Assembly (NCBI GenBank): GCA_964502615.1
Contig: CAZCXF010000003.1
Span: 8,962 to 72,961 of the forward strand
Source of the DNA: an uncultured Candidatus Saccharibacteria bacterium
Lineage (GTDB): Bacteria; Patescibacteriota; Minisyncoccia; Phycocordibacterales; UBA9973
DNA: 64,000 nucleotides
Reading direction: 5' to 3'
The notes beneath the pieces are model-generated. The model did not search any database. It saw nothing but the letters and a program-made list of their open reading frames with translations, and was not told the origin of the DNA. Positions 10,283 through 42,417 of the stretch are shown piece after piece; position 1 is the stretch's first letter; the number at the start of each line of letters is the position of its first letter. The translations under genes and the position numbers were made by a program.

Positions 10283-10292
10283 AAATTATACT

Positions 10293-12992: not shown

Positions 12993-13035
12993 TATGATAT
13001 TAATTATATCATATCTATAGATTTAGCTTGAGTAT

Positions 13036-13815: not shown

Positions 13816-13819
13816 ATAT

Positions 13820-16678: not shown

Positions 16679-16711
16679 AATAGATTAATCACTATTTAGT
16701 ATAACACATTA

Positions 16712-20486: not shown

Positions 20487-23400
20487 TTACCTTTCATATA
20501 TACGGCGTGTAGGAGAAATTGAACGCATCATCTTGTCTTGGCTAGGTACATCTCCTTCATAGTCTCTACTCCATGAATCTCTATCATTCCAATCTATTGG
20601 CCTCTTGAAACCATAAAGTGTATTATCGTCAGCCTTATATACTTTCTCTGTTATACGTTTTATGTATGTTTCCATATTTTCATTACCAATAGGTTTTTCG
20701 TTTCCAAGCGTGTGTTCAACTTTGTCCACGAATTTCTCATAGTCTTTACTACCTACAAGTTTCTTATAGAATCCAGATAAACGTTCCACTTCATTTCTGT
20801 GTGAGAATGAATATGTTCCAGTTAGTGGATTTTGACTAATGATTCCTTTTCTTACAAGTTTATCTAAATCTGCTTTTGGTAAATTGTTTCCATTTAGAAA
20901 ATCTTCTTGCATGAAATATTTTGCCGGTATTTTTTCTACAATTTTCCATTCCTCGGTAGGTCTAAAGTATTCTTGTGTAACTCTCACGTCTGGACCCGGA
21001 ACATTTCTTCCAAGAACTGGATCATAAATAACTTTAGGTACATTTTCTACTCGGACATTTGTTCCAAATAGTTGTTGCAGTTCACGCTCTTTATTGAAGT
21101 CTTCATAAGAATCAAAGTTTAAACCTTTTTGTTCAAACATCTGATCGTTCGCGGTATTCCAATCATCATATTTTAGACCATCTTTAGTGTCATCAATTGT
21201 TGGATATTCAGGTTTGTCTATTAAAACGGTTTTATTTCCAAAAGTTTGCCTTATCTCTCTGGCTGTTTCTAAATGCCTAGGATCTGATTCTATTGGTAAA
21301 CCTTCACCAGTGCTATTGTTTACAGCGTTTTCATAAACGCCATTACCTTTATTGGTAAATATTGCTTCTCTATCTGTCATAGGTACTTCTCTTGAAGTCG
21401 TTCCAGGATTTGGTCCACCTTTAATTGCACCAGATCTAGGATAAACATTTCCCGTTTCCTCTCCTGTATTGTATCCACCTACAGCCTCAGTAGGTTTTAT
21501 TATTTTCCCAGATCCTATACCTTCGTTACTAAAACCATCTGGCTGTGTCGGACGAACATTGTTATCCATAATTATGGGTGTCTCTGTTTTAGTAACTGTA
21601 CCAAGTCCATACTCATCAACTTTTTCTGCTGTAATACTTGGTCCAGAAATCTTACGAGCCCCAGATAGATCAATATCATTTTCTTCCACCTTAGGAGTAG
21701 GCACTGTGTCTATGTTTACTGGTGCTGTTGTTCCTGTCACTTGGTGCGCTCCGGATAGATCAATAGATTCATTATTTACTGTTGAGTTTAATTCTGTTCC
21801 ATTCAGTGCAACGTTCTCAGTATTAACTCCTTCTTGGAAATCTACATTTTCTGTTTTTATTGCTGACTCATCTAATATAGTTGATTCTGTTGAAATTTTT
21901 GCAGTACTAATTATGTCTTTATCGTCTAGTTTTATATTTTTATTGAAATTATCTTCAACGACTGGAGATTTTGAGATATCAGCAACCTTTTCTAATTTTG
22001 GAGCAACTTTAATTTTTGGACTTCCATCTGCTTTGACTGTTGGTTGATCGTCTACAGGTACTTTCACTTCTGCTTTAGGAGTTGGTGGTAGAGTATCGTT
22101 TAAATTAGTTTGTGTAGTTATGTGAGCACTGTCTGGAATATTTGCTGGTACAGTATTAACATTAACGGTATCTTTTATTGAAGATGTTAATACACTATCC
22201 TTGCTTGGTAGATTCTGTAACATCTCATTGTTACTAACCTTTGTCATACCGATAGCCCCTGCAACTTTATCTTGGTGGTGCCCCAAAATACTACTCCAGT
22301 TAATAGTAAGGCCAAGTCTCTCTTGTATGTCACGGATTTCATAAGCCAAACCAGAAAATGTTGCTGCAACTAAAGCACCACGGATTATTTCATGTTTCTT
22401 AAATGCTGCTTGTTTGTCATCGAACCCAATTTCATTCTTCTGTCTCAATCTCTCAAGAATAACTGCTACATCTCTGTTGTCTTCTTGGATTAAGTCTCTA
22501 AGTTGTCTTTTCTCCATTCTTGAAGAACCATCCATACTCATGACCTTAATTTCTATTAGCTCATCTGGTATATCTGCAAAGTTTGGTTTGTTTGCTTGTA
22601 TTTCAACAGCTGCTTTAGACAAAAGTCTTAGCATTTCATAGTTTATTCCAACTGGATTATTAGTACCATAGTTTATAAGACCTTCTTCTAATTTACTTCT
22701 TATATAGTTTGAGCGTCTCTCAAGTTCAAGTATTAATCTTGCCTTTTCTCCAGGATTTGTAGTTCCTCCAATTTTATTTAATATATTTTCCAATCTTTGT
22801 ATTTGACTGTCCGCATCTATAAATCCTGCTACTTCTCGAGCATTTACGTCTTTACCAGATATCACTTTGGAAGCTTCTTTTAATATCTTGCCTTTAAGCT
22901 CCATATCTTTACTTGAGTTCTTGTCTTCAAAAATTTGCCCAGGCTGGTAGGGTTTACCATTGGCCATTATAGGAGTTCCTTGTTCATCAAGCATTACATT
23001 TCCAGCATCATCTTTTTTAAAGTTGTTGCTGTACTTCTCTCTTGCGAGCATCCTTTCCTCCCTAGTCATCTCTCTAAAAGTTTTACCTTCTCTTCCCTCA
23101 CTAAAAGCTTTGTTTATTTTTTGTTCAGCTTTTCTTTTTGCTCTAAGTGCTCCTATTGTCGCTGCTGTGATAGGACCTGCTAATGTTGCAAATCCTCTCA
23201 ATGCCCACCTGCTGGCATATCCTAACCCCATATAACTTGCTCTCCACAAGTTTTCATTATTTGCCAGCTTTTTCCAGGATGAAGATTCTTGTAATTTTTC
23301 CATTTCCAAGATTGCATCTGGGCTCGTATTTGTAAATTGCATCATAGATATCTTGTAGTCTTTCTCACACATGAATGTTTGTGCTTTTTCTACAGCAAGT

Positions 23401-24401
23401 GAAGCCTCCATTCCTTCATCTTTGTATTTTTTCGCACGTAAATCTATGACTTTCTTTTTTGCTTCGTTATATTCATGCTCAAGCAAAATATATTTATCGT
23501 AATTTTTCTCACTACCGAGCCCTTTTGCAGCTCTTTCATTTTTCCATGAATCTGGCATTTTTGAGAATTCATTTGCTTTTTCGTTATATTTTTCTACAGC
23601 TTCTTTAACTTCAGGAGACATAGCAGGATCAATTTGTATAAACTCTATGCTTGGCTTACCAGCATTATCAATCACTTTCAAATTAAGCTCAGACATTCTT
23701 TTTGTTAAAGCTCCCAATACTTCTTCGTCGGGCTTGAGTTTTCCTGATCTAAAATCTTCCAAAGCTTCTTTACTTTGTGAATTTACGTAAGATGATTTCC
23801 ATATCTTTTTCCATACTTTACCAAGAGCACTAGGACGCCACTTAAATACGTTAAATGTTCCATTTATTTTGTTTTTTTCATTAAATCTTTTTTCTCCCTC
23901 TTTTTTTACATCAACAAATATTTGCTGAGATGCTTGTTCTATAACCAACATTTTTTGTGGTTCAGTTAGAGTTGCCCATTCTGGTATAGATTCAAAATCT
24001 TTTTCTTTTAGACCAACCTTCCTTAGTTTTTTACCAAGTAAAGTGCTGGCATTTCTGGCTTCTTCTTCTGCTTCCTTCTTTTCCAAATGTTCTTCAATGC
24101 TTTGTTTTATAACTTCAGCTTGCTCTTCATTTGTTTTCTTCGTTTCCTCTGCTTGCTCGGCAATTGTCTTTTTTAGTTCCTCTTTGAGGTTTCCTATCTT
24201 TATTTTCTCTCTGAATGTATCAATAGTAACTTGGTCAAATCCTAGATTGATAAGCCCTGCATCGCTTTCTCCGGATTTGATTGCCATAGTAAGAATCATT
24301 TCTTTACTACTACCGATCTGGCTCTTCAGTTGCGCAGAAATAGCCTTATTTTCATCTAATTTTTTCTGAGCCTCTTCTTTTGTTAATCCTTCAATTGCCA
24401 T
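20487..24401 (-). CDS. giant (1304 aa) protein of unknown function, coiled-coil N-terminus, one internal hydrophobic segment
   Basis: No signal peptide, no nucleotide-binding motifs; long Lys/Glu-rich coiled-coil; hydrophobic stretch GLGYASRWALRGFATLAGPITAATIGAL. Confidence 0.4.
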   Translation of the reverse strand: MAIEGLTKEEAQKKLDENKAISAQLKSQIGSSKEMILTMAIKSGESDAGLINLGFDQVTIDTFREKIKIGNLKEELKKTIAEQAEETKKTNEEQAEVIKQSIEEHLEKKEAEEEARNASTLLGKKLRKVGLKEKDFESIPEWATLTEPQKMLVIEQASQQIFVDVKKEGEKRFNEKNKINGTFNVFKWRPSALGKVWKKIWKSSYVNSQSKEALEDFRSGKLKPDEEVLGALTKRMSELNLKVIDNAGKPSIEFIQIDPAMSPEVKEAVEKYNEKANEFSKMPDSWKNERAAKGLGSEKNYDKYILLEHEYNEAKKKVIDLRAKKYKDEGMEASLAVEKAQTFMCEKDYKISMMQFTNTSPDAILEMEKLQESSSWKKLANNENLWRASYMGLGYASRWALRGFATLAGPITAATIGALRAKRKAEQKINKAFSEGREGKTFREMTREERMLAREKYSNNFKKDDAGNVMLDEQGTPIMANGKPYQPGQIFEDKNSSKDMELKGKILKEASKVISGKDVNAREVAGFIDADSQIQRLENILNKIGGTTNPGEKARLILELERRSNYIRSKLEEGLINYGTNNPVGINYEMLRLLSKAAVEIQANKPNFADIPDELIEIKVMSMDGSSRMEKRQLRDLIQEDNRDVAVILERLRQKNEIGFDDKQAAFKKHEIIRGALVAATFSGLAYEIRDIQERLGLTINWSSILGHHQDKVAGAIGMTKVSNNEMLQNLPSKDSVLTSSIKDTVNVNTVPANIPDSAHITTQTNLNDTLPPTPKAEVKVPVDDQPTVKADGSPKIKVAPKLEKVADISKSPVVEDNFNKNIKLDDKDIISTAKISTESTILDESAIKTENVDFQEGVNTENVALNGTELNSTVNNESIDLSGAHQVTGTTAPVNIDTVPTPKVEENDIDLSGARKISGPSITAEKVDEYGLGTVTKTETPIIMDNNVRPTQPDGFSNEGIGSGKIIKPTEAVGGYNTGEETGNVYPRSGAIKGGPNPGTTSREVPMTDREAIFTNKGNGVYENAVNNSTGEGLPIESDPRHLETAREIRQTFGNKTVLIDKPEYPTIDDTKDGLKYDDWNTANDQMFEQKGLNFDSYEDFNKERELQQLFGTNVRVENVPKVIYDPVLGRNVPGPDVRVTQEYFRPTEEWKIVEKIPAKYFMQEDFLNGNNLPKADLDKLVRKGIISQNPLTGTYSFSHRNEVERLSGFYKKLVGSKDYEKFVDKVEHTLGNEKPIGNENMETYIKRITEKVYKADDNTLYGFKRPIDWNDRDSWSRDYEGDVPSQDKMMRSISPTRRIYER

Positions 24402-24421
24402 ATAGTTAATTTTACTTTAGT

Positions 24422-24985
24422 TTATTTCTTTTTACTATTAAAAACTTCGTCTATGTCTCCTGCATTAAAACCCTCTGCTAGTAACTCCTTTTTACTTAAT
24501 CCAGCTTCCCTACCTTTCGCAATCGCCTCCATAGCTTTCTTTTTTAACTGTTCCAGCTTTTCCATTTCCTCTTGTTTGGCGATAAACTCTTCAAGCTCCT
24601 TATTCTCCTTATCCAATTGAGCGAGTTGTTTTTCTATTTCGATTACTTTTTGCATTTCCTCATAAAGTTGTTTCCGTAGTTCCTCATTGTTTTGAATTAC
24701 CTCGGAATCTTCTTCTGGTTCGACGACGTCTTCAGTATCAGGGTTTTCAGTGTAGTTCTCTTCTGTTTGTGAATCACCGGGATTAGTGTCATGAAGTACG
24801 ATAGGATGTGATATTTCGTCAGGTTGTACCTCTCCTGGAATTACTTGTTTACTAGAATTGTCTAACTTTTTTTCATTTAGCTGTGCCATCAATTCTTCCT
24901 CCTCAAGCAAAAGAGCATCCAGTTCTTCTTTGGCTTTATCTTTATCGGTTGGTATTGGTGGTTGGTTAAATTTGGCTTGATTCAT
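24422..24985 (-). CDS. acidic coiled-coil protein
   Basis: 187 aa, Glu/Lys-rich heptad-like; overlaps upstream gene end by 20 nt (translational coupling). Confidence 0.3.
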   Translation of the reverse strand: MNQAKFNQPPIPTDKDKAKEELDALLLEEEELMAQLNEKKLDNSSKQVIPGEVQPDEISHPIVLHDTNPGDSQTEENYTENPDTEDVVEPEEDSEVIQNNEELRKQLYEEMQKVIEIEKQLAQLDKENKELEEFIAKQEEMEKLEQLKKKAMEAIAKGREAGLSKKELLAEGFNAGDIDEVFNSKKK

Positions 24986-27173
24986 AGCTACGGTTGTTCA
25001 TTACATTATAAACTTCCTCTAAATTTTCGTCTTTTATCCCTTGCTCTTTGAAGAACGTTCTTACTTGTTCTAATGCCAACTCCTTATCCTTATATGATCT
25101 GTATGCATCTTGGTAAGATATTGTTTTTAATAGTGTCTTACCCTTACCTGTAATGCTATCGCTACTGACTTTATTATACAGTTTTTTCTTAATAAGTTCT
25201 TGTATTTGTTTCCATACCTCATCATCAAGATCTTCTTTCTTTTTTACTTGAGTTGAATCAGGGTGTTTTTTTATATAGTTGTCTCGAATAATTTTATGAG
25301 TTGTTATATTTTCAAATTTTATACCATATTTCTCAATACGGGGACGTAAGTATTCAAGAAGACTCTCTAGTTGAGCAATTGTAAACTGAGTATGGTTTTT
25401 TGTATCGCCCTCCATCTCAACCCCAAGTGAAAAATAGTTGACTGCATTACGATTATTAAAATCACTCTTTCCAGCGTGTGCCAATACTGAGTTGTCGGTA
25501 TTAAATAAGTATCGAGTTCCATCTTTCATAATTACTACATGAGAAGAAGTATTTGATTCTGGGTTTTTAAATTGTCTTATAATGCTGTCTGCCTCTTCGT
25601 ATTCGCCAGTATGGTGAATCACAATAACCTGCTTCTCATTTATTGCAGGTTTATGAGTAATGCTATCTAGCGTAAAGTTTGGGGTATAGTTTTGATATTC
25701 TTTATATTTATTTTTGTATTCATATGGAGATATTCTTTCATCATTAATTAAAACAAGAGCTGTACCCCCATCGGTGTTTCTAAGTAAATGTTTTTTAATT
25801 TCTTCTGTTGTTATTTTTTGGTCGTTGTCCCAAATAGGAAGATTGTATGACCCATTGTCTAAGAGAAAAGCTTGGATAGGTACACCCCTGTATTCATTTT
25901 GCAGTCTTTGATAAACATGATACATATCACTAAATGATCCATTAACCTGAAGTTGTTTGTCTCCACAGACCATGATTATTTTTCCACCCTCAAGCGTTCC
26001 AAAATGTGTACAGTCTGATGGTTTAGTAGCTTTTAGATTTTTATCTACACTTACCCCTATAGGGAATGGAATTTCTTTACCTTTCTCATTTATAGAAACA
26101 GGCACCATTCGCAAGGCTTGTTCATGATAGACAAGATTTAATGTTGAATCAGGATTCAATTTAAAGTTGAGAGGTATTTCGTATGTTTCAGACACCATCC
26201 AATCATCGTTAAATTCTTTATAATGACCGGCTTTAATTTGCTGTGTTTTTGTGTTGTATCCTACAACTGGTATATCACCAATCTTTTCAGCACCTAATCC
26301 AGTATGTCCCTTGAGAGCTGGACTGAATTCCCCATAGCTATAAAATTTCTTAAATAAATTTGTTGTTATACCTGCTGCTGAATCTATATCACTATAATTT
26401 TCACGGTCATTTATCAATTTAAACCTAGGAGGAGTTCTATCGCTTAGGTCAAAAACTGATGTTTTGTAATAACCAAACTTGTAATCTATTTTATGTTCCC
26501 CTATAAAGTCATAAGTACTTCTCTCAACATTTGTTGAGTCTCCAATTTTATTTACATCATATCCTTCACTGATACCTACGATTTTTGGATCATCCTTACC
26601 TTCCTTATCCATATGTCTTTCTTTCCAGTTTTTCCAGAGTTGCCAATATTCTTGGGGGGTATGATAAGAAAGTGCAACACTAGCACTTACGCCAGCAGAT
26701 AAAGTTAAAAGACGAATAGAACCACGTAACCATTTATTTTTCTGATTCCAAAACTTGTTGGCAATTTTCATCCATAATGGACCAACTTTTCCAGAATGTA
26801 CTTTATCCAAAGTGTCTGCCAGTATTTTAGTCAACTCTTCGGGTGTTTTACTTTCTTTATCTAAAAAATCTTCCCTCTTTTCTTTTGCTAACTTATTTAA
26901 AGCAAAAATTACTTCTTTTGTACTCTCTTCATTTAACTTATTAAATTCTTGGAGAATAGTATTTTCGTTTTCTTCTTCAACTAATTCAGTTGCAATTTCT
27001 GTATTTTTTTCATTGTTTTTTAAAATTTCTTGTGGTTTTTCTTCTGTTATAATTTTTTCAAGTAAAGCCTTTCTTCCTCTAATATATTCTAATCTCTCTA
27101 GCAATAAATCCCTCTCATTTTTTTCTTGAAGGTTATCACCTGGCTTTTTTATTGAATCAATATTGTCTGTCAT
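24966..27173 (-). CDS. membrane-anchored N-acetylmuramoyl-L-alanine amidase (Amidase_2/PGRP domain) with N-terminal coiled coil
   Basis: C-terminal VIVIHHTG...LAHAGKS...NYFSLGVEMEGD...ITTHKII matches Amidase_2 zinc amidase pattern; TM helix near aa 150-170. Confidence 0.6.
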   Translation of the reverse strand: MTDNIDSIKKPGDNLQEKNERDLLLERLEYIRGRKALLEKIITEEKPQEILKNNEKNTEIATELVEEENENTILQEFNKLNEESTKEVIFALNKLAKEKREDFLDKESKTPEELTKILADTLDKVHSGKVGPLWMKIANKFWNQKNKWLRGSIRLLTLSAGVSASVALSYHTPQEYWQLWKNWKERHMDKEGKDDPKIVGISEGYDVNKIGDSTNVERSTYDFIGEHKIDYKFGYYKTSVFDLSDRTPPRFKLINDRENYSDIDSAAGITTNLFKKFYSYGEFSPALKGHTGLGAEKIGDIPVVGYNTKTQQIKAGHYKEFNDDWMVSETYEIPLNFKLNPDSTLNLVYHEQALRMVPVSINEKGKEIPFPIGVSVDKNLKATKPSDCTHFGTLEGGKIIMVCGDKQLQVNGSFSDMYHVYQRLQNEYRGVPIQAFLLDNGSYNLPIWDNDQKITTEEIKKHLLRNTDGGTALVLINDERISPYEYKNKYKEYQNYTPNFTLDSITHKPAINEKQVIVIHHTGEYEEADSIIRQFKNPESNTSSHVVIMKDGTRYLFNTDNSVLAHAGKSDFNNRNAVNYFSLGVEMEGDTKNHTQFTIAQLESLLEYLRPRIEKYGIKFENITTHKIIRDNYIKKHPDSTQVKKKEDLDDEVWKQIQELIKKKLYNKVSSDSITGKGKTLLKTISYQDAYRSYKDKELALEQVRTFFKEQGIKDENLEEVYNVMNNRSYESSQI

Positions 27174-27287
27174 CTCTGTTTAGACATTGTAATAGGTCTA
27201 TATTATAAAGTAAATAAATAATTTTGTCAAATCAGTATAATATTACTTTGTTTATAAGCCTTATTTTATCATTAAAGTAAATAAAAA

Positions 27288-27323
27288 ACACCCTAAAGTT
27301 ATTGTCCAAGACTTTAACTTTAG
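27288..27323 (-). terminator. rho-independent terminator of the 27346-28110 gene
   Basis: Perfect 10-bp stem ccctaaagtt/aactttaggg followed by T-run on minus strand. Confidence 0.7.
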
Positions 27324-27345
27324 GGCGTGGGTACGGATCAATGAA

Positions 27346-28110
27346 TTATTTTATCACGATCACATTACTTTGTTTCTGGCGGAACATTCCGCCAACCTGC
27401 TGGCCGTTAAGGATCATCGGTGTGTAAGCTGCGCTTGGAAGAATAGCGGCTGTTATTGTACTTTCGTAAATAAAGCTTTTAGTCTCCAACTTCTCACGGG
27501 CCCAACCTTTCAGGATTTTTAAGGCCTGATCAAGGGGCATGGCGTTCATGGTAACGATGGAGATATCTCTGCCAGTAGTAAATGTCTTAGCGCTGTCTTT
27601 GAGTGTTTTACCCCATTCTTTTTGAACCAGGAATCTCCAGTTTGTTGACTTTGACGGCAGCTTTTTCATTTCAGCAGTGTCCACATCATTTTTCCACATT
27701 GGAAGGTAAACCTGAATTGATTTAACACCATCGTCCTCACCCTCAACTCTCAGAATCCCGTCTGCATAAAAATTGATCCAACCGGAAGGTTGGAATTTAG
27801 GGTCAACTGATCCTAAATTATTTCCATTGTCCAATGCTTGGCCGGAAATGGAGTCAGTGGGTGTGGAATAGGTTCCGGTCAGGACCAGGCTGTAGCCTTT
27901 GAAATTTTCGGGCTTCGGGTAAAACAGAATGTCTGCTTTGTTATCCGGTTTTTCAACCGTTATCACAGAGCCCACCGGTACATTATCAGATACAAGCGAC
28001 CAGGTTTTTACTGAACCGCAGTCAGCGATCGGTTTCAGACTTGTGGTTTGAGCATTTACTGTTGCATTCAGGGCAGTCACCATTACCAGGGCAAAAATTA
28101 CCTTTTTCAT
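27346..28110 (-). CDS. secreted protein of unknown function, compositionally foreign (elevated GC)
   Basis: Signal peptide MKKVIFALVMVTALNATVNA; GC visibly higher than flanks; own promoter region and rho-independent terminator. Confidence 0.45.
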   Translation of the reverse strand: MKKVIFALVMVTALNATVNAQTTSLKPIADCGSVKTWSLVSDNVPVGSVITVEKPDNKADILFYPKPENFKGYSLVLTGTYSTPTDSISGQALDNGNNLGSVDPKFQPSGWINFYADGILRVEGEDDGVKSIQVYLPMWKNDVDTAEMKKLPSKSTNWRFLVQKEWGKTLKDSAKTFTTGRDISIVTMNAMPLDQALKILKGWAREKLETKSFIYESTITAAILPSAAYTPMILNGQQVGGMFRQKQSNVIVIK

Positions 28111-28262
28111 GTTGTTTTTTATATTTGTTTTGGGTTTAAGTTACAAATTTCTAGGTATATTTTATATACTCAAAAACTTGTAACCCAAACTAAACAAAGT
28201 ATCAAAGATCACATATTGCTGTATATAATAGCATAAATAAACAAAAAAGTCAAGTAATATCA

Positions 28263-28292
28263 ATAAAAAATCCCGCTTTTGCAAGCGGGCCT
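28263..28292 (-). terminator. rho-independent terminator of GH25 gene
   Basis: cccgctt-ttgc-aagcggg hairpin followed by T6 on minus strand. Confidence 0.7.
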
Positions 28293-28311
28293 TCGACATA
28301 ATATGCCGGTA

Positions 28312-29070
28312 CTATTTTTTCAGTAGCAATGAGTCAAAAACTTTCAGAGGTATATTATTACCATCAACTTTCTTTTTTATCCCCTTGATACTTACTTTGT
28401 CGGTGAATTGATGGATCAAAGCCTTTTTGATGTCAGGATCATCAAAATAGTCTTTTTTCGAATCTCCATAAGCTGCCAACCACAAAGGATACTTATTGAA
28501 AGCCGTATCTTCCTTGAAATTGTTTCGGTAAAAATTTAAGCTAGTGTAAATTACCGGAACAACTCTATGTTTTTGGGCTACAGTATCGAGAAGGAATTTA
28601 AACCTCTTTTTCAAAGAATCGGTTAATAAAATATCCTTCTTACGATTGGTACTATCTCCTTCTTCAATGTCTATAATTGGGCGGAAGTCACCCTTGATCA
28701 GTATCATAGACATTGAAAGATAGTTCATTGCTTGTGAGTCAACCGGTTGACTGGGCACAAAGTAGTGATATGCACCAACTCTGTAACCTCTCGATTTTGC
28801 TTCGGCGAAATTCTTCAAAAATGTAGAATCTCTGTACGAAACTCCTCTGGTTGCTCGACAAACTACGAATTTAACCGGATGCTCATTTGCTATTGAGTCC
28901 CATATGATACAGGTTCCCTGGTGATGGGATATGTCTATTCCAAATGCCACTTCAGGTGCTTTAGGTTTTTTCTTCATTGCAGTTTTAGTTTCAAAAACAA
29001 GCAATGCAATTAAAAAGATTGCAGTAAAGATAATTAGTTTTTTTCTCATGATTACAAAGTTTGTAATCAA
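28312..29070 (-). CDS. glycoside hydrolase family 25 muramidase (lysozyme), secreted
   Basis: GIDISHHQG...CRATRG...GAYHYF pattern of GH25; N-terminal signal/TM. Confidence 0.65.
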   Translation of the reverse strand: MITNFVIMRKKLIIFTAIFLIALLVFETKTAMKKKPKAPEVAFGIDISHHQGTCIIWDSIANEHPVKFVVCRATRGVSYRDSTFLKNFAEAKSRGYRVGAYHYFVPSQPVDSQAMNYLSMSMILIKGDFRPIIDIEEGDSTNRKKDILLTDSLKKRFKFLLDTVAQKHRVVPVIYTSLNFYRNNFKEDTAFNKYPLWLAAYGDSKKDYFDDPDIKKALIHQFTDKVSIKGIKKKVDGNNIPLKVFDSLLLKK

Positions 29071-29100
29071 ATTAACACAAAAAAACTATAAAGTCAAGTA

Positions 29101-29676
29101 CTATCTATTTAAACCATATTCTTCGAGTGCTTTCTTATATGAATTTTCTATTTCTTCTGGTTTATCTTTAATACTATCAAGATATGATGGGTGTATTCCC
29201 CATACTAGAAGTAGTTCTTCTTTGTCGCCGTTACGGTCTATTACTTCCTTCATTCTATTTCTTGTTTTTTCGTAATTTTCTATAAATTCTGCTTGCGAAG
29301 CAAAAGCATCCCTGTTCTGTCTACTTTTATTTTTTATAAATTCTTCCTTAGCATTGCTATCTAAATTGTCGTAGAATAGTCCCCCTATTTTTGTTTCATT
29401 ATCAAAATTAACTTTTTCTTCTTCTGCTATAACATCAGGAGTTTTTTCAACTTTCTCTTCACCCAAAATTTGTTTTTTTAGCTGTATATATTCGTCACGA
29501 AGTCTATTAAATTCAACCAACGCTTCTTTTCTTCCTTTTTCTTTTTCTTCCTTTTTAAATTTTTCATCAAAAGCTTTCCCAGTAGTAGAAGCTTTCACTT
29601 GCATTAAAGCTTCCACAGGATTTGCTCCCGTGACTATTGTTCCATCTTCTAATTTAAATCTAAAAAGTTGTTTCAT
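29101..29676 (-). CDS. hypothetical protein
   Basis: 191 aa, Lys/Glu-rich, no motif recognised. Confidence 0.3.
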   Translation of the reverse strand: MKQLFRFKLEDGTIVTGANPVEALMQVKASTTGKAFDEKFKKEEKEKGRKEALVEFNRLRDEYIQLKKQILGEEKVEKTPDVIAEEEKVNFDNETKIGGLFYDNLDSNAKEEFIKNKSRQNRDAFASQAEFIENYEKTRNRMKEVIDRNGDKEELLLVWGIHPSYLDSIKDKPEEIENSYKKALEEYGLNR

Positions 29677-29677
29677 G

Positions 29678-32092
29678 TTATTCTTTTATTTTTATAGCTT
29701 TCAAAAACTTATCTTCATTACCCAAATCTCTGTCAGCTTTTTTCTTTGGCGGAAGAATCATCACTCCATTAATCATATTACTTCCTGGAATAGCTTTAGA
29801 TAATTCTTGATCAATAAATGTTAAATCATGGGTTGAGTTATTTATAAAACCTTTTTTAGTCAGTTCACTGTATGATGCATAAGTGTCGTATCCTTTTGCT
29901 TTAATCAACGCAAAAGGATAATGGAATTTATTTAAATATTTATTATTCTTGCCAGAAGTTTGATAATCAGGAAAGTTATATATTACCTTACCCAATTCGT
30001 TTGTGTATTCTTTGATAACTCGCTCTTTCATTTTTCTTTTTGCAAACTCAAAAGCCTTTAGATCACTATCTATCTTTTTTTGAATTTCACCAATAACAAA
30101 TTTTAATGGCACCATCTCTTCTCGGTACATTTTTCTTGGTTTATTTTCACCCTTTTCTTGCCACCCTTCCGCTTCCACAAGTATCTTCACTTTTTCTTCT
30201 AATTCCTTGTCAGTAAACTTTGGATCAAAAGGATCTCTACCTTCTTTTGACCATTGTATCAAGTGCCTAAAATCAACTTCTTTCTGCAAGGCAAATAAAG
30301 AACTGGCATATTTGTATTTGAAATATGACTCATTGAATCTTTTATTATCAACATATGAAAGATTGTCTTCTTGGTTTATTGTGTTGGTCAATCTATCTAA
30401 CTTAAGATCACGTTCTATAAAACCATTCTCTAGCATAGTATCGTATGTTTCTTTTGTTGCTGAAGTTTTATTGTCGCCAGGATGATTTTTTTGGTGGTGA
30501 TCAAAGTTTATTTGCACGCCTCCATTCTCATGCTCTACTGACAAAGTCTTATTATTTGTATCAATATATATTATTACTTCTCCTGGTTTTTGTTCAACAC
30601 CTTCTCCTTTATGTGTTTTTTCTATTAAATTATATTTAACTCCAGCTAGTTGAAGCATATATAGAGCTCCACGTGTATCACTATCCGCATCCCAGTGGCT
30701 CAGTAGTTCTCCCTTTTCGTTTTCGAAACTGTATCCATGGATAACTACTCTATCTACTTTCATATTATTCTTTCGTAAGATATCTCCTATCTCTCGCATT
30801 GTTTCTAATCTCTTTAATTTTTCCTTTTCTATTTTTTCATTTTCTTCTGTATCTTCAACTTGTCCTGCTGGTTGTATTTCTACATTTCCAAATCCAAGAA
30901 TAGAAAGTTGTTCTTTCCATAATTTTGCTTTTTCTTCAGGCGAAGCCTTTCTTCTACCAATGGTTTGCCTAATTTTTAATTCCTCAATTTTCTCACCGAA
31001 GTTCTCAAGACTCTTTAATTCTTGTTTGTTTTTGTATTCTTCACTTTTTTCTACAACGAACTCCTTATTTTTATCCATCAAGAAAGAGCGCATATCTTCT
31101 ATGCTCATATTACCCTTTTGGTTTGTAGTTAGATTCTCAAAAGAAATCTTCCCGTTTCTAACTTCTCTGATTTTATATATAGCTCTTTCACCGTCTAATC
31201 CGCCAGTTCTAATTTTCACAATATCTCCAATACTAATATCTTCAAGTTTCTTTTCTTTCTCTTTATTCTTTCTAAATTCTATACTTGTTTCTTCTGCTAG
31301 CCTCTCTGCATCTTCCATTTTTAATTCTACTCGTTCGCCCTTCTCGTTTTTAACAACAATATATTTTTCTTTTCCACGTATAACAATTCCAACCACTGAG
31401 TAATTTAAACTTTCTTTACCAACTAGTTTGTTTATATCATCAGTAGCAACTTCTACATCAAGACTTTTACCATTATCTAAATTTACCCAATCTGATCTCA
31501 TCTCTCCGTTTACTTCGAGAGGGATCTTCTTATCAAGAGCTAATTTAATATTATTTAATCTTTCTATAAGAAGTCTTTTTTTGTCTAGTAAATTATCTAA
31601 AGCTTTTTTTCTACTAGATTTTTCTATATCACTTAAATCTTTATTATTTATTCGATCAATTTTTCTACTTAATGCTATCTTTACCCACTCATATGGGTTC
31701 TCTTCAAAAATTTCTAACTCCCTTTTATTTCTTTCATCAACTTTTTTATCCCCGTATATTTTACTTAATTCATTTCTCCATATATCTGTTTCTAAATAAA
31801 CTAAATCTTGTAGTTTTATATCTTCATTATTTAGTACAAGACCCATACGATCTAGTTTTTCCCCTCTTGAAGTTTTTGGGTTTTTTTCTTCTATTTCCCT
31901 TATATCTTTACCTTCTGGATAATCTTTAGGGAAAAGCCTCTTTAGCATAGGGTTAAAAATACGACCTGCTTCCTTCCTACTCTCCTTTTCAATATTTCTT
32001 GGTTTACGTGGTTCTATAGGTGTAGGATTATCTCCCCCGCCACTTTGGCCGGGTATTTCACTAAGAGCATTGTATTTCTTTAGTCCATCCAT
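29678..32092 (-). CDS. large Lys/Glu-rich protein with embedded DHH-family phosphoesterase motifs
   Basis: HWDADSDTRGA (motif I), VIIYIDTN (motif II), INFDHHQ (DHH motif III) within aa ~450-530. Confidence 0.4.
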   Translation of the reverse strand: MDGLKKYNALSEIPGQSGGGDNPTPIEPRKPRNIEKESRKEAGRIFNPMLKRLFPKDYPEGKDIREIEEKNPKTSRGEKLDRMGLVLNNEDIKLQDLVYLETDIWRNELSKIYGDKKVDERNKRELEIFEENPYEWVKIALSRKIDRINNKDLSDIEKSSRKKALDNLLDKKRLLIERLNNIKLALDKKIPLEVNGEMRSDWVNLDNGKSLDVEVATDDINKLVGKESLNYSVVGIVIRGKEKYIVVKNEKGERVELKMEDAERLAEETSIEFRKNKEKEKKLEDISIGDIVKIRTGGLDGERAIYKIREVRNGKISFENLTTNQKGNMSIEDMRSFLMDKNKEFVVEKSEEYKNKQELKSLENFGEKIEELKIRQTIGRRKASPEEKAKLWKEQLSILGFGNVEIQPAGQVEDTEENEKIEKEKLKRLETMREIGDILRKNNMKVDRVVIHGYSFENEKGELLSHWDADSDTRGALYMLQLAGVKYNLIEKTHKGEGVEQKPGEVIIYIDTNNKTLSVEHENGGVQINFDHHQKNHPGDNKTSATKETYDTMLENGFIERDLKLDRLTNTINQEDNLSYVDNKRFNESYFKYKYASSLFALQKEVDFRHLIQWSKEGRDPFDPKFTDKELEEKVKILVEAEGWQEKGENKPRKMYREEMVPLKFVIGEIQKKIDSDLKAFEFAKRKMKERVIKEYTNELGKVIYNFPDYQTSGKNNKYLNKFHYPFALIKAKGYDTYASYSELTKKGFINNSTHDLTFIDQELSKAIPGSNMINGVMILPPKKKADRDLGNEDKFLKAIKIKE

Positions 32093-32392
32093 GTTTGTCT
32101 ATTATACCTATATTTAAATATGCTTGTCAAATAAAGCTATTTGTGGTGTAGTAAAGCGTTTTTATAGGGAGTTGATAACCCTGTGTATTACTTGGTTGAC
32201 TAAGGGGTCTACATGGGCTACCCTTAAAGGAGTAGGGTAGCTTTAGGGCTTCACTACTTCCTGAAATAGAAGAAAAGCTTTATTTTGTAAGCATTACCGA
32301 AAAGATTGTAACAATCACATTGGTATCATTTAGAAAATTACAGCCCTCACTTTTGTGGTCGTACTGTAGTTCCTAGATAGGGTGATCCCAGT

Positions 32393-33622
32393 TTGATTAA
32401 TTTATTTAGGCTTATTAAACTCAAAAATCAAGATTCTAATGGTAGTTTTGCTTGGCAAAAAAACCAAAAGATGAAAATAGCCTTATTTTACAAGCCTTCT
32501 ACTATGAAAGCTTGTATTTCTGTGTTTGTATTAATGTATATCTTTTGCCAGCCAAGCTTAGCTTCGGCTGGTTTTTTATCTGATCTTGTTGATAAAATAG
32601 TGGGCAATAAGACTCAGGCTTCTGAAATAGAACCTGCAAATACAGAGGTGATTCACAATTCTCAAAATGTTCCTTTGCTTGAGTCTTCTATTAACCCAGA
32701 CTTAAAGAATATAAAAGATGAACCTACTCCTGTTTCTATATCTAGTAATACAGCCTTATCTAATAATGGTAATCTAGACGTTGATTCTGAGCTTGAAAAA
32801 TATGACTCAAACGTCAAAATTACTACTTATACAGTAAAAAAGGGTGATACATTAGATAGTATTGCTAAAAAACTCAAGATTTCTAAGGCTACTATAATTG
32901 CATCAAACACAGACCTTAAAAAATCAGATTTATTAAAGGTTGGACAACCTCTTGCTATCTTTGGAATTAAGCCTGATGTCAAAGAGGTCCCAGTTAAAAA
33001 TGAAAAAACGATAGTAAAGAAAGAGGAAGAACCAAAAGAAACAAAGAAAGTCGTTGTTGAAACTAAACAACAAGCACCAAAAGAAGAACCAATTCCAGCC
33101 CCTATAGTACAAGCTCCAGTAGTTACAACACCTATTATAGAACCCCCAGTTCAGGTTGCTCAGCCTCAACAACCAGAACCTCAAACTCCAACTGGGCAGC
33201 CAGAAGGTGGAATCGATGGTGGATATATATGGCCATTCCCTAAAGGAATAGGTCGCGTATCACAAGGTTTGCATGCTGACCAAGCGATTGACTTTGCAGC
33301 ACCAAAAGGTACTCCTATATATGCTGTTTCAAATGGTACGGTTTTAATTGCTCATCCAACAGGTTATAATGGTGGATATGGTAGATATGTCGTTATAAAC
33401 TTTGATGATGGGCGCCAAGCAATATTTGGACATATGAGCGAAGTTACTGCAACTCCAGGGCAAGTAGTAAAAAAGGGTGATGTTATAGGATTTGTTGGTT
33501 CAACTGGTAAATCTACTGGCCCCCACCTACACTTAGGTTTCCACTTTGAGAGTGGTTCAGGACTAGGAAACCCTTATATTGGTTTGAAAGTTAATAGTAC
33601 GGATTTTATAGACAATGAATAA
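32393..33622 (+). CDS. LysM domain + M23 (LytM-like) metallopeptidase
   Basis: LysM YTVKKGDTLDSIAKKL; M23 HADQAIDF (HxxxD) and GPHLHLGFHF; true start probably at internal Met (~32471 or ~32504), giving signal peptide MKACISVFVLMYIFCQPSLASA. Confidence 0.75.
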   Translation: MINLFRLIKLKNQDSNGSFAWQKNQKMKIALFYKPSTMKACISVFVLMYIFCQPSLASAGFLSDLVDKIVGNKTQASEIEPANTEVIHNSQNVPLLESSINPDLKNIKDEPTPVSISSNTALSNNGNLDVDSELEKYDSNVKITTYTVKKGDTLDSIAKKLKISKATIIASNTDLKKSDLLKVGQPLAIFGIKPDVKEVPVKNEKTIVKKEEEPKETKKVVVETKQQAPKEEPIPAPIVQAPVVTTPIIEPPVQVAQPQQPEPQTPTGQPEGGIDGGYIWPFPKGIGRVSQGLHADQAIDFAAPKGTPIYAVSNGTVLIAHPTGYNGGYGRYVVINFDDGRQAIFGHMSEVTATPGQVVKKGDVIGFVGSTGKSTGPHLHLGFHFESGSGLGNPYIGLKVNSTDFIDNE

Positions 33623-33902
33623 AAAATTATTAACATTACTTATAGCATTCCTATTATTTATAGGCTATCCAATGGCTGATATTTCTGCTGCAACTACAAC
33701 AGGATCAACACCAGCTTCAAAAACAGTCACCAAGACAGTAAAAAAGAAAACAGCTACGAAGAAAAAAGTAGTAAAAAGAAAGAGAAAAGAAAGATTAATT
33801 AGTGCTCCAAAACCATTTACTCTCGAAACTGCTCCCCATTCACCTCAACCAATTGCCAAAGCAAAAAAGAAAACAACTAAGAAAACAGTTAAGAAAGCAT
33901 AA
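33615..33902 (+). CDS. small Lys-rich secreted protein
   Basis: Signal peptide then KKK-rich basic tail; 95 aa. Confidence 0.3.
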   Translation: MNKKLLTLLIAFLLFIGYPMADISAATTTGSTPASKTVTKTVKKKTATKKKVVKRKRKERLISAPKPFTLETAPHSPQPIAKAKKKTTKKTVKKA

Positions 33903-33904
33903 AA

Positions 33905-33934
33905 AATCCCCGACCAAAGTCGCGGGATTTTTTA
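33905..33934 (+). terminator. rho-independent terminator
   Basis: atccccgac-caaa-gtcgcgggat hairpin followed by T6. Confidence 0.65.
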
Positions 33935-33953
33935 TGCTATAATTTATCTATAA

Positions 33954-35507
33954 ATGAAAAGGCTCTTACTACTATCTCTAATAGTTTTTCTATTATCTGG
34001 ATTTGTTAATCTAGGTTCTGCCTTAGCTTCTGATGGTACTATTGATACTAGTTTTGTAACAGGGACTGGTTTTGATGGGCCAGTTAACGCAATAGTTAAA
34101 CAATCCGATGGAAAAATAATCGTTGGAGGACAATTCTATAATTATAATGGAACACCTTCTGCATCTATTGTCAGACTAAACTCAGATGGAAGCATAGATA
34201 GTAGTTTCACTATTGGTACAGGTTTCAACGGAGCTATAACAGCTTTAGGTATTACATCAAATGGAAAAATAATCGCAGCAGGGACTTTTGATGACTACAA
34301 TAGTAATTATTCTAAGGGAGTAGCAAGAATAAATTCTGATGGAACTTTTGACTCAACATTTGTTACGGGTATTGGTATTAGTGGTGCAAGAAATTTTTAT
34401 ACTATTAATGCTATGGTAGTTCAATCTGATGACAAAGTTATTTTAGTTGGGCGGTTTAATGGTTATGACGGTAATACTGTTGCTGATATAGTTCGTATCA
34501 ATACAGATGGTTCTTTTGATTCGAGTTTTCTTCAGGGTGGTGGTTTCGATAACGAAACTTTTTCTTTAGCTATTCAATCTGATAATAAAATAATAGTTGG
34601 AGGGACTTTTAATAGTTACGATAGTAATACTGTTGCAAATATAGTTCGATTAAATTCTGATGGAACATACGATGCATCTTTTTCAACAGGAGCTGGTTTT
34701 AGTGATAGAGTTTCATCGATAGTCGTTCAATCTGATAATAAAATCCTTCTAGCTGGACCGTTTACTACATTTGATGGAAATAGTATTCCTTATTTAATAC
34801 GCCTCAATTCTAACGGATCTATTGATGGTAGTTTTAATACTTCTAATAATTTTGACGGTACTATTAATTCTGCAGTTATTCAGTCAAATGGAAAAATTAT
34901 AGTAGGAGGGGTTTTCAATAATTATGGATCAACTGCAGTGTCGCACGGTATTGCGCAACTAACTTCTACCGGGGCACTTGATTCAACATTTTCTATAGGC
35001 ACTGGTTTTGATTTTACTCCATTAGTAATGTTGTTAGATTCAAATAATAAGTTAATTGTTGGTGGAGATTTTGGCCAATATAACGGATCAACAGCTGTAG
35101 ACATCATTAGACTAAATGCTGATCCCGTAGTAATTATCTCTTCTGGTGGAGGAGGTGGAGGTCACCATAGCTCAGGGTTTTTACCAAGTCTGGTGCAAAT
35201 ACCTACACCAACAACAGGGATAAATATTCCTGCTGTGTGTATGCCTCTAATTACAGGTCCTATTGAGAGAGGTAAGAAAAATAACCCAGAAGAAGTAAAT
35301 AAACTAGTAACTTTCTTAAACACTCACGAAGGAACAAATTTAATTGCTGACGGTATTTATGGACGCAAAGATGTAGAAGCTATTAAAAATTTTCAGACCA
35401 AATACTATAAAGATATATTCTCTCCATTTTTGAAAAATAAAGTAACTGGCATCGTCGGATACTACACTAGGTTTAAAATAAACGAGCTTAATTGTTTGAA
35501 AAAATAA
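33954..35507 (+). CDS. secreted delta-60-repeat (beta-propeller-like) protein with C-terminal peptidoglycan-binding (PG_binding_1-like) domain
   Basis: About 8 repeats of DGSxDxSFxxGxGFxGxV...QSDGKIxVGGxFxxY...IVRLNSDG; C-terminal LIADGIYGRKDVEAIKNFQ resembles PG_binding_1. Confidence 0.5.
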   Translation: MKRLLLLSLIVFLLSGFVNLGSALASDGTIDTSFVTGTGFDGPVNAIVKQSDGKIIVGGQFYNYNGTPSASIVRLNSDGSIDSSFTIGTGFNGAITALGITSNGKIIAAGTFDDYNSNYSKGVARINSDGTFDSTFVTGIGISGARNFYTINAMVVQSDDKVILVGRFNGYDGNTVADIVRINTDGSFDSSFLQGGGFDNETFSLAIQSDNKIIVGGTFNSYDSNTVANIVRLNSDGTYDASFSTGAGFSDRVSSIVVQSDNKILLAGPFTTFDGNSIPYLIRLNSNGSIDGSFNTSNNFDGTINSAVIQSNGKIIVGGVFNNYGSTAVSHGIAQLTSTGALDSTFSIGTGFDFTPLVMLLDSNNKLIVGGDFGQYNGSTAVDIIRLNADPVVIISSGGGGGGHHSSGFLPSLVQIPTPTTGINIPAVCMPLITGPIERGKKNNPEEVNKLVTFLNTHEGTNLIADGIYGRKDVEAIKNFQTKYYKDIFSPFLKNKVTGIVGYYTRFKINELNCLKK

Positions 35508-41524: not shown

Positions 41525-42031
41525 TTAATATATTAAATATTTTCTTGGATTAGCTGAAAGATCTAAGAAGTCATCTGCTTGCTCTTTTAATTTCATAGAT
41601 GAACTCTTTCCAAATGATACTACTTCAACTTGTACTCCAAATGTACTCTGTAAATATTCTACAAGTGGAACAAAGTCACCGTCCCCTGCTACTAGTACTA
41701 CTGCATCGAGTCTAGGTGCCATTTTTACTGCGTCGATTGATATTCCTACGTCCCAGTCACCTTTTTTATTTCCACCAGCAAAAATTTGTAGTTCTTTTGT
41801 TTTGGTTTCAATACCTAGCTTAGTAAGTGCATCAAAAAAGTTCTTTTCTTCCCCTCCTTCGGAAGTTATGACATATGCAGTCGCGCGGACGAGCTTTCGC
41901 CCAGCTACAGCATCTTTAAGTACTGCACCAAAATTTACTTTTCGTTTATATAGATTTTTAGCACTATGATACAGATTTGCTGTATCGATAAATACACCAA
42001 CTCTCTGCTCTTTATGTTTTATTATGCTCAT
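41525..42031 (-). CDS. NYN-domain (LabA-like) protein
   Basis: RVGVFIDTANLY...VVLVAGDGDFVPLVEYL pattern of NYN/PIN-like nucleases. Confidence 0.6.
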   Translation of the reverse strand: MSIIKHKEQRVGVFIDTANLYHSAKNLYKRKVNFGAVLKDAVAGRKLVRATAYVITSEGGEEKNFFDALTKLGIETKTKELQIFAGGNKKGDWDVGISIDAVKMAPRLDAVVLVAGDGDFVPLVEYLQSTFGVQVEVVSFGKSSSMKLKEQADDFLDLSANPRKYLIY

Positions 42032-42057
42032 ATATGTTTATTGTATCAAAACAAAAT

Positions 42058-42077
42058 GTTCCGACCTAGGTCGGAAC
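42058..42077 (-). terminator. rpsO terminator/attenuator hairpin
   Basis: Perfect palindrome gttccgacc-ta-ggtcggaac followed by T-rich tract on minus strand. Confidence 0.65.
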
Positions 42078-42083
42078 ACAATG

Positions 42084-42344
42084 TTATGCTTTTAATGTTT
42101 TAAGTTGTGCTGCGTGACGAGTCTTGTCTTTCTTCTCTAAGTACTTAAGATGACTTCTGCGATCAGCAACCATCTTGATAAGTCCACGTCGAGAGTGATT
42201 ATCTTTCTTGTGTTCCTTCAAGTGACTTGCAAGTTCATCGATTCTTTTACTTAGAATTGCAATTTGAACTTCAGGAGATCCTGTGTCCTTATCGTGAATC
42301 TGGCTTTTCTTTATAATATTTTGCTTTTTCTTTGTCGTTAACAT
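42084..42344 (-). CDS. rpsO: 30S ribosomal protein S15
   Basis: [14 protein letters not shown]...[15 protein letters not shown] signature. Confidence 0.9.
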
Positions 42345-42417
42345 CGTCCTTATATACTAGCACATATTTAAAAAAATTGCAAGAGGGCTTTATATAAGGG
42401 TATTTATACAGACTTAT

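Follow-up and report, generated by a model that had tools for sequence, protein, structure and literature searches.

Pilin-like modules fused to exchangeable, predicted peptidoglycan-active enzymes, and separate putative wall-remodelling genes, around an origin-proximal type IV secretion locus of a Paceibacteria bacterium

The closest described counterparts of the locus reported here are the VirB1-type hydrolases (PrgK of pCF10, TraG of pIP501, CwlT, TcpG), which are encoded in the operon of a type IV secretion system (T4SS), have an N-terminal membrane anchor and bear a peptidoglycan-cleaving domain (SLT, for instance) outside the cytoplasm, with which they are presumed to make a local opening in the wall for the machine. 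T4SS-linked wall hydrolases are already known, and in Patescibacteria peptidase and lysozyme homologues adjoin virB4 (PMC10633639; PMC12102498); a survey of this phylum associates VirB1 homologues with virB4 mainly in Paceibacteria (PMC12102498). The T4SSs of Candidatus Southlakia epibionticum (PMC10633639, Wang et al. 2023) and other Patescibacteria (PMC12102498, Quinonero-Coronel et al. 2025) are akin to monoderm conjugation systems (FATA-like), lack a relaxase, use VirB2-like pilins and, in Paceibacteria, lie near dnaA, rnpA and ksgA. Among envelope machines, the T4SS alone has been shown to be indispensable to cultivated Patescibacteria in their epibiotic life (PMC10633639; PMC12857230). 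Here we describe a 64-kb stretch of DNA (the window) that contains a T4SS locus in which the only pilin-like proteins are physically fused to peptidoglycan-active enzymes, and a further group of wall hydrolase genes at 24966-35507.

The T4SS of the window is relaxase-less and monoderm-type, as is typical of the phylum, and its position fits the published placement near dnaA and KsgA (PMC12102498). It differs from the VirB1-type systems in that a VirB2-like pilin hairpin serves as the membrane anchor, the proteins bear a single enzymatic head each and the family of this head varies between close genomes, and in that the T4SS is chromosomal, origin-proximal and without a relaxase. The Southlakia and other Patescibacteria systems share with it the monoderm type, the lack of a relaxase, the proximity to dnaA and VirB2-like pilins, but are described as having arrays of small pilins and separate hydrolase genes, whereas all pilin modules of the present locus are fused to enzymes. 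Both the survey (PMC12102498) and a 2025 T4SS review describe pilins and VirB1-like hydrolases as separate components, and no description of a pilin-enzyme fusion with cassette-like head replacement was found in the searchable literature, where PF18895, the T4SS_pilin family, is mentioned in just two works. With moderate confidence, we favour the reading that the apparent hydrolase cluster of the window is a juxtaposition of separate wall-remodelling modules around this T4SS.

The window is AT-rich (31-38% G+C), uniform in composition and densely coding. Profile scans (Pfam and NCBIfam) over some 50 of its open reading frames (ORFs) revealed ordinary chromosomal genes (among them YidC, Jag, KsgA, UvrD/PcrA, ComM, DksA, PNPase, CCA-adding enzyme, RNase Y, ClpP, trigger factor and NusA, accompanied by four tRNAs), and no relaxase or coupling protein was detected among these ORFs. 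YidD is the first ORF (101-307), with yidD-yidC-jag at the left end; as rnpA, rpmH, dnaA and dnaN come next after yidD in orthologous loci, the window starts a few hundred bases from the origin region. Homologues are named Candidatus Nomurabacteria, Paceibacteria and Patescibacteria, and several public metagenome assemblies contain identical contigs. The window is origin-proximal chromosome of a small-genome, 'Nomurabacteria'-like Paceibacteria member of the candidate phyla radiation (CPR), in agreement with an earlier reading made from the letters alone (the sequence-only reading), which had supposed a small-genome organism. The T4SS block occupies the minus strand from 17578 down to 1564 (Table 1).

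Two genes of this block, both inside the T4SS operon and directly after VirB4, encode the fusions. Each product consists of a signal peptide, a two-helix hydrophobic hairpin with a Lys-rich loop (the pilin module) and an enzyme, the two heads being unrelated. In the slot 1 protein, pilin::SLT, the signal peptide is followed by a small N-terminal Cys-containing domain, the pilin module (nucleotides ~4690-4989) and a C-terminal lysozyme-like/SLT head (~3978-4667); in the slot 2 protein, pilin::VanY, the module (~2063-2362) leads to a C-terminal M15B/VanY head (~1582-1944). The two modules are 94-97% identical in protein and 88% identical in DNA over 300 nucleotides, and the module's helices have hydropathies of 2.18 and 1.64. 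Relatives with the same module score 28.9-29.2 bits against T4SS_pilin (PF18895), above its cut-off, and some match TrbC (PF04956) below its cut-off (best E 4.2e-5). Within the 64 kb no stand-alone pilin gene was found, which leaves the fusions as the only pilin candidates of the locus.

The presence of M15 and SLT fusions upstream of the 24966-35507 stretch, as claimed in the sequence-only reading, was borne out for both heads. In the VanY head, SMHETGLAFD and ENWH, read in the sequence, correspond to the SxHxxGxAxD and ExxH zinc motifs; the nearest solved relatives are YodJ/LdcB/VanY, and the segment PGTSMHETGLAFD aligns with YodJ. The SLT match is marginal in the window protein and is supported by its family: in an alignment of 13 homologues of the head (A4) the Glu of RE(S/T)GG is invariant, eight of the 13 match SLT (best E 3.7e-12) and eight match T4SS_pilin. 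No match to a solved-structure sequence was obtained with either the single SLT head sequence or the family profile. Because of the invariant catalytic Glu and the eight matching members, SLT was accepted at the level of the family.

The diversity of heads became apparent in a homologue search with the VanY fusion, which returned 247 proteins; 140 sequences were examined. The pilin module was present in 110 of them, and a C-terminal head of at least 100 residues in 109 of these 110. At least 11 unrelated clusters can be distinguished among the heads, including VanY, the SLT type of the window, a second SLT type, SLT_2, YkuD, NlpC/P60, Amidase_2 and several without a family. Five genomes (the window and loci L018-L021) have the same slot order of VirB4, a secreted protein of ~320 residues, the pilin::enzyme, a protein of ~410-460 residues and jag. 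At this same slot the head is Amidase_2 in L018, NlpC/P60 in L019 and YkuD in L020, and the flanking genes of these three loci are all orthologous to those of the window, with VirB4 89-93% identical.

The fourth locus, L021 (GCA_964477995.1), has the two-slot layout of the window. Its VirB4 is 98.7% identical, its Jag 92%, and the VanY protein at the slot 2 position 87%; its slot 1 head is a different, unannotated domain. At the DNA level the two loci are 74-85% identical from VirB4 across the 331-aa gene and into the pilin module; homology then ends at the junction of module and head, and resumes in the 462-aa gene. This break, confined to the head, indicates a cassette-like replacement of the head alone, and across the relatives the enzyme part is swapped in this manner between genomes whose VirB4 proteins are 89-99% identical. 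Pilin::enzyme fusions would also explain the association of VirB1 with virB4 in Paceibacteria.

Two conserved elements of the fusions were noted in passing. In many of them (P0100, P0112, P0143, P0072 and, in the window, 5090-5190, corresponding to residues ~29-68 of the 3978-5264 protein) the pilin module is preceded by a small 'WYF..GPY..C..C' domain at the N-terminus, with weak GYF-domain matches in one relative. The linker between pilin and head, NP-x-LTG-x-GLT-x-DQ, is conserved across unrelated heads (window ~4667-4700 and ~2040-2075; P0100, P0102, P0112, P0143). This linker may mark the point at which heads recombine, or else a site of processing comparable to the C-terminal maturation of TrbC/VirB2 pilins.

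The fusions would form the first of the modules that we propose. Exported by Sec, they would use the VirB2-like two-helix module as an anchor to both the membrane and the T4SS; by the positive-inside rule, we infer that this module inserts with both of its ends outside, so that the enzyme is held outside the membrane at the T4SS. VanY-type enzymes are carboxypeptidases, which trim terminal residues, and YkuD is an L,D-transpeptidase, which cross-links and is not lytic. The SLT protein of slot 1 would be a cutter of glycan and the VanY/M15 protein of slot 2 a trimmer of peptides, together the functional counterpart of the VirB1/PrgK-type hydrolases, and at the site of machine assembly the heads may open the wall or re-tailor it. 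By default, we take the cell's own wall to be the substrate of the heads.

A conserved N-terminal delivery module followed by swapped C-terminal enzymes, often wall-degrading, is also what is seen in polymorphic toxins and effectors (CdiA-CT, Rhs, LXG, amidase effectors of type VI secretion systems, Xanthomonas T4SS X-Tfe), and one trait of such systems, a single conserved module with variable C-terminal heads, is present here. The 462-aa gene was considered as a head-specific immunity gene. Its orthologues downstream of the fusion in L018-L021 (410-462 residues) are 45-72% identical whatever the type of the head; a role in head-specific immunity was therefore rejected, and the gene is better seen as a core component. 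A second trait of polymorphic effectors, a downstream cognate immunity gene that co-varies with the head, is thus absent from the window and from L018-L021. Further differences from these effectors are export by Sec with membrane insertion, and the presence of a transpeptidase among the heads.

An alternative explanation is that the pilin-borne enzymes, perhaps along with the amidase and GH25 proteins described below, act in trans and have a host bacterium's wall as their target. Carried on the T4SS pilus or released from it at the contact site, they would allow an epibiont to breach the host envelope, and head swapping would be an adaptation to differing host wall chemistries. The combination of a conserved delivery module and rapidly replaced enzyme heads is a hallmark of polymorphic effectors, and the CPR T4SS, which has no DNA-transfer parts (PMC12102498), is required together with its pilins for the epibiotic growth of Southlakia (PMC10633639). 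The explanation also accommodates the lack of any pilin candidate other than the fusions, and the location near the T4SS of an amidase protein without a Sec signal. Against it count the constancy of the gene downstream of the head and the missing immunity gene, the YkuD head type, which cross-links rather than lyses, and the Sec signal peptides of the fusions, which are predicted integral membrane proteins. We regard action on a host wall as unlikely.

The sequence-only reading had taken the hydrolases at 24966-35507, together with the upstream fusions, for an unusually dense set that was a large investment for such an organism, was able to cleave every bond type in peptidoglycan and was possibly linked to the T4SS. 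The amidase, GH25 and LysM-M23 domains all scored above the Pfam and NCBIfam cut-offs at the expected positions. The density also held up in part: if 0.5-2% of genes are wall hydrolases (our own assumption), at least five of them among 30 consecutive genes have a probability of 6e-7 to 4e-4 per window, so that the clustering exceeds chance under that frequency. It does not, however, reflect a single unit. Two promoters and one terminator place the genes at 24966-35507 in at least three transcription units, the density being a composite of separate modules and not one system. The promoter at the 804-aa gene and a strong terminator-like hairpin after the GH25 gene (28272-28289, minus strand) delimit a unit of the 804-aa, 191-aa and GH25 genes; a further unit comprises the amidase, 187-aa and 1304-aa genes, and the 254-aa gene is on its own; the LysM-M23 gene, the 95-aa gene and perhaps the delta-60 gene lie on the other strand. 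The link to the T4SS holds for the two upstream fusions, which are inside its operon; between the T4SS and the genes at 24966-35507 lie KsgA, UvrD and the 1304-aa protein.

GH25 and SLT enzymes attack the same bond, between N-acetylmuramic acid and N-acetylglucosamine. As VanY trims, and as neither a glucosaminidase nor a gamma-D-Glu-meso-diaminopimelate endopeptidase was identified in the set, cleavage of every bond type was an overstatement. The set is not exceptional either. Starting from an alignment of amidase homologues (A1), related loci were compared with the window proteins, and the contigs of two homologues were inspected. Every related Paceibacteria locus examined contained LysM-M23, a pilin::enzyme and the 700-aa amidase, here called the core set, and only the GH25 and the second pilin::enzyme are additions to it. 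The order of a divergent LysM-M23, an amidase of ~700 residues, a fast-evolving protein of ~1150-1300 residues, UvrD, KsgA and the T4SS was found in L007, L008, L010, L012, L014 and L016/L017, and the short contig L009 contains the M23-amidase part only. Amidase identity across these loci goes down to 57%, and a CG10 Nomurabacteria genome has no gene between M23 and the amidase, the two standing back to back. Of the relatives compared, L014, the closest, is alone in having the GH25 gene and its 254-aa neighbour (78% and 74% identity), and none has a delta-60 gene beside M23. The M23 and amidase genes, neighbours in seven related loci, are thus a conserved lineage pair, GH25 and delta-60 are local additions, and the core set, conserved in the same positions, is typical of the lineage rather than exceptional. 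Taken alone, the genes at 24966-35507 represent ordinary, largely lineage-typical autolysin biology plus one unannotated domain.

Table 1. Positions of the main features of the window and the evidence on which each was assigned (aa, amino acids; nt, nucleotides; coordinates are those of the 64-kb window).
Feature	Position	Strand	Evidence or remark
pilin::VanY, slot 2, last gene of T4SS operon	1564-2559	-	VanY E 5e-9, 36.4 bits vs cut-off 25
462-aa membrane-anchored T4SS partner, after pilin::enzyme gene	2561-3949	-	homologues in L018-L021
pilin::SLT, slot 1	3978-5264	-	SLT 21.5 bits vs cut-off 21.3 (marginal); 24 bits for head alone
Secreted T4SS protein of 331 aa, after VirB4 and before slot 1	5266-6261	-	same position in L018-L021, 56-85% identity
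VirB4-like ATPase	6305-8137	-	P-loop_TraG E 9e-23
TraC-like N-terminal piece	8139-8792	-	TraC-like family seen on orthologues
PrgI/VirB3-like protein	8814-9227	-	PrgI E 2.5e-10
Conserved T4SS-locus proteins of 344, 899, 259, 952 and 288 aa	9248-17578	-	syntenic homologues in relatives
1304-aa and 187-aa coiled-coil-rich proteins, downstream of amidase gene	20487-24985	-	
Amidase735	24966-27173	-	Amidase_2 at aa 515-628 (nt 25290-25631), E 3.5e-16, 60.2 bits vs cut-off 26
Sigma-70 consensus promoter, 12/12 (TTGACA, 17 nt spacer, TATAAT), upstream of amidase gene	27202-27230	-	
Secreted 254-aa protein, GH25 partner	27346-28110	-	N-terminal signal-like sequence read directly
GH25 muramidase, 245 aa	28312-29049 (ORF to 29070)	-	Glyco_hydro_25 E 7e-33, 114.8 bits vs cut-off 27, profile 1-180/180
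Cytoplasmic proteins of 191 and 804 aa, in the direction of GH25 and upstream of it	29101-32130 (including promoter)	-	
Consensus promoter, 12/12, upstream of 804-aa gene	32101-32130	-	
LysM-M23 endopeptidase, 372 aa, signal peptide	32504-33622 (ORF from 32393)	+	divergent from amidase-side genes
95-aa secreted Lys-rich protein	33615-33902	+	in place of the 129-aa PG_binding_1 protein of L014
Secreted delta-60/DUF5122 beta-propeller	33954-35507	+	seven DUF5122 repeats, E 4e-80, 264 bits

The conserved pair would constitute a second module, in which the secreted LysM-M23 protein and the ~700-aa protein (presumably cytoplasmic coiled coil, X domain, AmpD-type amidase) may serve as autolysins in growth and cell separation. 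The LysM-M23 protein matches LysM (E 2e-11, 44 bits vs 20.9) and Peptidase_M23 (E 4e-26, 91.6 bits vs 28.7). The HLH and GHMS motifs of M23 are present; an Asp replaces the canonical -4 His of HxxxD, and a His at -6 (Hx5D) is invariant in seven orthologues. A degenerate amidase activator was considered in view of the His to Asp change, but the invariant upstream His makes an intact site more likely. With this His and the other metal and catalytic residues in place, the metal site is probably intact and the enzyme probably active. The pair resembles the LysM-LytM factors with their separation amidases (NlpD/EnvC-AmiABC, DipM, ActS), in which LysM and M23 are combined and genetically paired with an N-acetylmuramoyl-L-alanine amidase; it differs from them in the apparently intact M23 metal site (Hx5D, H, HxH) and in an amidase of the Amidase_2 (AmpD/T7-lysozyme) type, not Amidase_3.

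In the amidase protein (Amidase735) an N-terminal coiled coil of 150 residues is followed by a weak hydrophobic segment (residues ~155-175), a region that we term the X domain, and Amidase_2. AmpD is the best solved relative of the Amidase_2 domain by both sequence (E 6.5e-9) and fold (Foldseek 2y28, E 2e-6), and IHHT, GVEMEGD and THKII line up with the AmpD motifs (zinc ligands and catalytic Glu; the third ligand was assigned by eye). The X domain (residues ~225-480, nucleotides 25734-26501), some 260 residues long, is the most conserved part of the protein in alignments A1 and A2; in the divergent family members P0026 and P0027 the amidase motifs have been lost and the X domain kept. No Pfam match to it was found in 18 members even at E 10, PF09992 (NAGPA) included, and sequence comparison revealed no solved relative even with a profile broadened to 25 sequences. 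Membership of the Pfam NAGPA family was accordingly rejected.

An X-domain profile search of 1.84 billion representative proteins returned 186 relatives at E <=1e-3, most of which match its C-terminal ~170 residues. Among 18 relatives scanned, Amidase_2 lies directly downstream in five, NlpC/P60 lies downstream in two, and LysM occurs in two; the recurrence of Amidase_2 and NlpC/P60 marks the X domain as a recurrent partner of stem-peptide-cleaving enzymes. A structural model of the domain (predicted local distance difference test, pLDDT, 80; predicted template modelling score, pTM, 0.83) was compared with two libraries. The best match in the PDB is the NAGPA phosphodiester glycosidase, which is non-significant (E 0.1-0.5, template modelling (TM) score ~0.26); in a viral structure set an uncharacterised protein of a crAss-like phage ranks first (E 2e-4), ahead of four entries named "phosphodiester glycosidase" and a number of lysins (E 0.015-1.5). 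Apart from the crAss-like phage protein these matches are weak (TM ~0.26-0.37). The two libraries agree, if weakly, on a fold like that of phosphodiester glycosidases, and the chances that the X domain is of that kind seem to us about evenly balanced. The domain, of which no description was found in the searchable literature, is a candidate for a new family of wall hydrolases or wall-binding proteins. It can be compared with bifunctional autolysins and endolysins (Atl-type, with amidase plus glycosidase; phage lysins that are annotated 'phosphodiester glycosidase'), which are similar in that X with Amidase_2 or NlpC/P60 recurs as a module, and differ in that the X domain has no sequence link to PF09992 or to any solved structure.

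The added value of the locus thus lies in the head-swapping of the pilin::enzymes and in the X-amidase module, which are variants of T4SS-associated hydrolases and of bifunctional autolysins. A bolder proposal would make the pilin::enzymes new T4SS-borne polymorphic wall-active effectors and, separately, the X domain a new family of wall-polymer glycosidases; we consider it rather improbable. For the effectors, VirB4 could extract the pilin module, to be polymerised, or to be processed at NP-x-LTG-x-GLT-x-DQ in the manner of TrbC/VirB2 pilins; the head, on the pilus or released from it at the contact site, would then cut or re-tailor the host wall, being tuned to its chemistry. If true, this would offer a concrete mechanism for the essentiality of the T4SS in epibiotic CPR bacteria. 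If the enzymes act on the cell's own wall only, they are ordinary T4SS-associated autolysins and division hydrolases. The locus turns the vague notion that a T4SS must deal with a wall into testable questions, namely whose wall is acted on (own or host), whether the heads are on the pilus, and how head type relates to host.

Several observations weigh against the reading of separate own-wall modules around the T4SS. The two window fusions remain below the family cut-offs for pilins, at 22.8 and 23.0 bits vs 26.6 for T4SS_pilin (E 1e-4 for pilin::VanY) and at 36.2 and 35.0 vs 40 for NF045849 (Mbov_0395 pilin-like; E 3.5e-9 for pilin::VanY). The amidase protein has no signal peptide and its hydrophobic segment, preceded by basic residues, is weak (mean hydropathy 1.3), so that its placement outside the cytoplasm is tentative; it may instead work like AmpD in the cytoplasm, or be exported by the T4SS. 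The basic residues and the hydrophobic stretch would also fit a membrane anchor with the N-terminus inside. Head diversity of the kind seen here is a more usual feature of antagonistic effectors than of factors with a housekeeping role in assembly, and the synteny of M23/amidase and T4SS may reflect only the general conservation of gene order near the origin.

In another explanation, housekeeping autolysins and a carboxypeptidase merely happen to lie near the origin and the T4SS, and the pilin segment is a generic two-helix anchor. Along with the pilin scores below cut-off, the interspersed KsgA, UvrD and other housekeeping genes, the separate transcription units and the general conservation of near-origin gene order in this class are all consistent with it. 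Yet in five genomes the pilin::enzyme occupies a fixed slot after VirB4, between the 331-aa and 462-aa genes; members of the family match T4SS_pilin and TrbC/VirB2 above or near cut-off; and the clustering is improbable by chance under the assumed gene frequency. A purely coincidental neighbourhood is, in our judgment, improbable.

A third module would be made up of the membrane-anchored, lineage-restricted GH25 and its secreted partner, acting as an accessory muramidase. GIDISHHQG, with the N-terminal Asp, and IDIEEGD (D-x-E) are present in the GH25 translation, whose hydrophobic N-terminus is a membrane anchor or a signal. Its 254-aa partner has no family in the scans and no solved relative; the possibility that it is a paralogue of the X domain was rejected (profile comparison probability 0.2%). 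The restriction of this block to one lineage, and the matches of GH25, Amidase_2 and M23 to phage lysis families in PHROGs, raise the question of a prophage or mobile-element remnant, that is, a leftover lysis cassette of GH25 endolysin and amidase. Neither the ten proteins compared with PHROGs nor the surrounding genes scanned with Pfam included a match to phage structural, packaging or holin families; base composition is uniform, the amidase and M23 genes are in conserved chromosomal synteny across the family, and the only integrase of the window is XerC/D-like and lies 7 kb past the right end of the 24966-35507 stretch. With lysis-type families only and no phage context among the proteins scanned, a prophage origin was rejected as very improbable.

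The delta-60 protein would be a fourth module, a surface protein and not a hydrolase. Its repeats, as proposed in the sequence-only reading, were recovered with high scores (in addition to DUF5122, six TIGR02608 repeats at 199.8 bits vs 76.5). The C-terminal PG_binding_1-like domain, also proposed, did not reach the cut-off (residues ~446-484, 17.1 bits vs 23, E 0.0064). This tail has an E 0.16 match to an endolysin wall-binding domain (7rum) and no similarity to the PG_binding_1 protein of L014; its motif pattern is compatible with a possible PG_binding_1 tail. The adjacent 95-aa protein matches its 129-aa counterpart in L014 only in the N-terminal 18 residues, and the PG_binding_1 domain is absent from it.

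Among the neighbouring genes, the 191-aa and 804-aa proteins have no family in the scans. The gene of the 804-aa protein (29678-32092, minus strand) is followed at short distances by the 191-aa and GH25 genes, ahead of the first terminator-like site. The 804-aa protein is partly conserved in L007 and L014, and displays DHH-like motifs by eye ('DADSD', 'NFDHHQ'), for which there was no support from families or solved structures. The 1304-aa and 187-aa proteins likewise have no family in the scans; the equivalents of 1153-1174 residues that follow the amidase in L014 and L016 were recognised by position and partial sequence. The proteins at 20487-24985 contain two weakly hydrophobic segments and are fast-evolving except at the C-terminus. 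The two 12/12 sigma-70 consensus matches (17-18 nt spacer) lie within 19 kb, and such perfect matches suggest that these are strong, canonical promoters in this CPR genome. At 41525-43365, downstream of PNPase, there is an NYN-domain protein and an XerC/D-type tyrosine recombinase, with no sign of a mobile element around them.

In the T4SS block itself, the 462-aa protein and the five proteins at 9248-17578 matched no family (Pfam, for the latter); the 899-aa protein among these is polytopic, with multiple hydrophobic segments, and is a candidate for a VirB6-like component. VirB4 apparently consists of two proteins, an N-terminal TraC-like one of 217 aa and an ATPase of 610 aa, and this split is kept in L018-L021. 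In L020 a 116-aa gene of the 23S_rRNA_IVP family (4929-5279 of that locus) is interposed between the PrgI and TraC-like genes of the operon. In L018-L021 a class A penicillin-binding protein (transglycosylase and transpeptidase) is encoded just past dnaA-dnaN, to the right of dnaN, so that the origin region of these genomes concentrates genes for both wall synthesis and wall hydrolysis.

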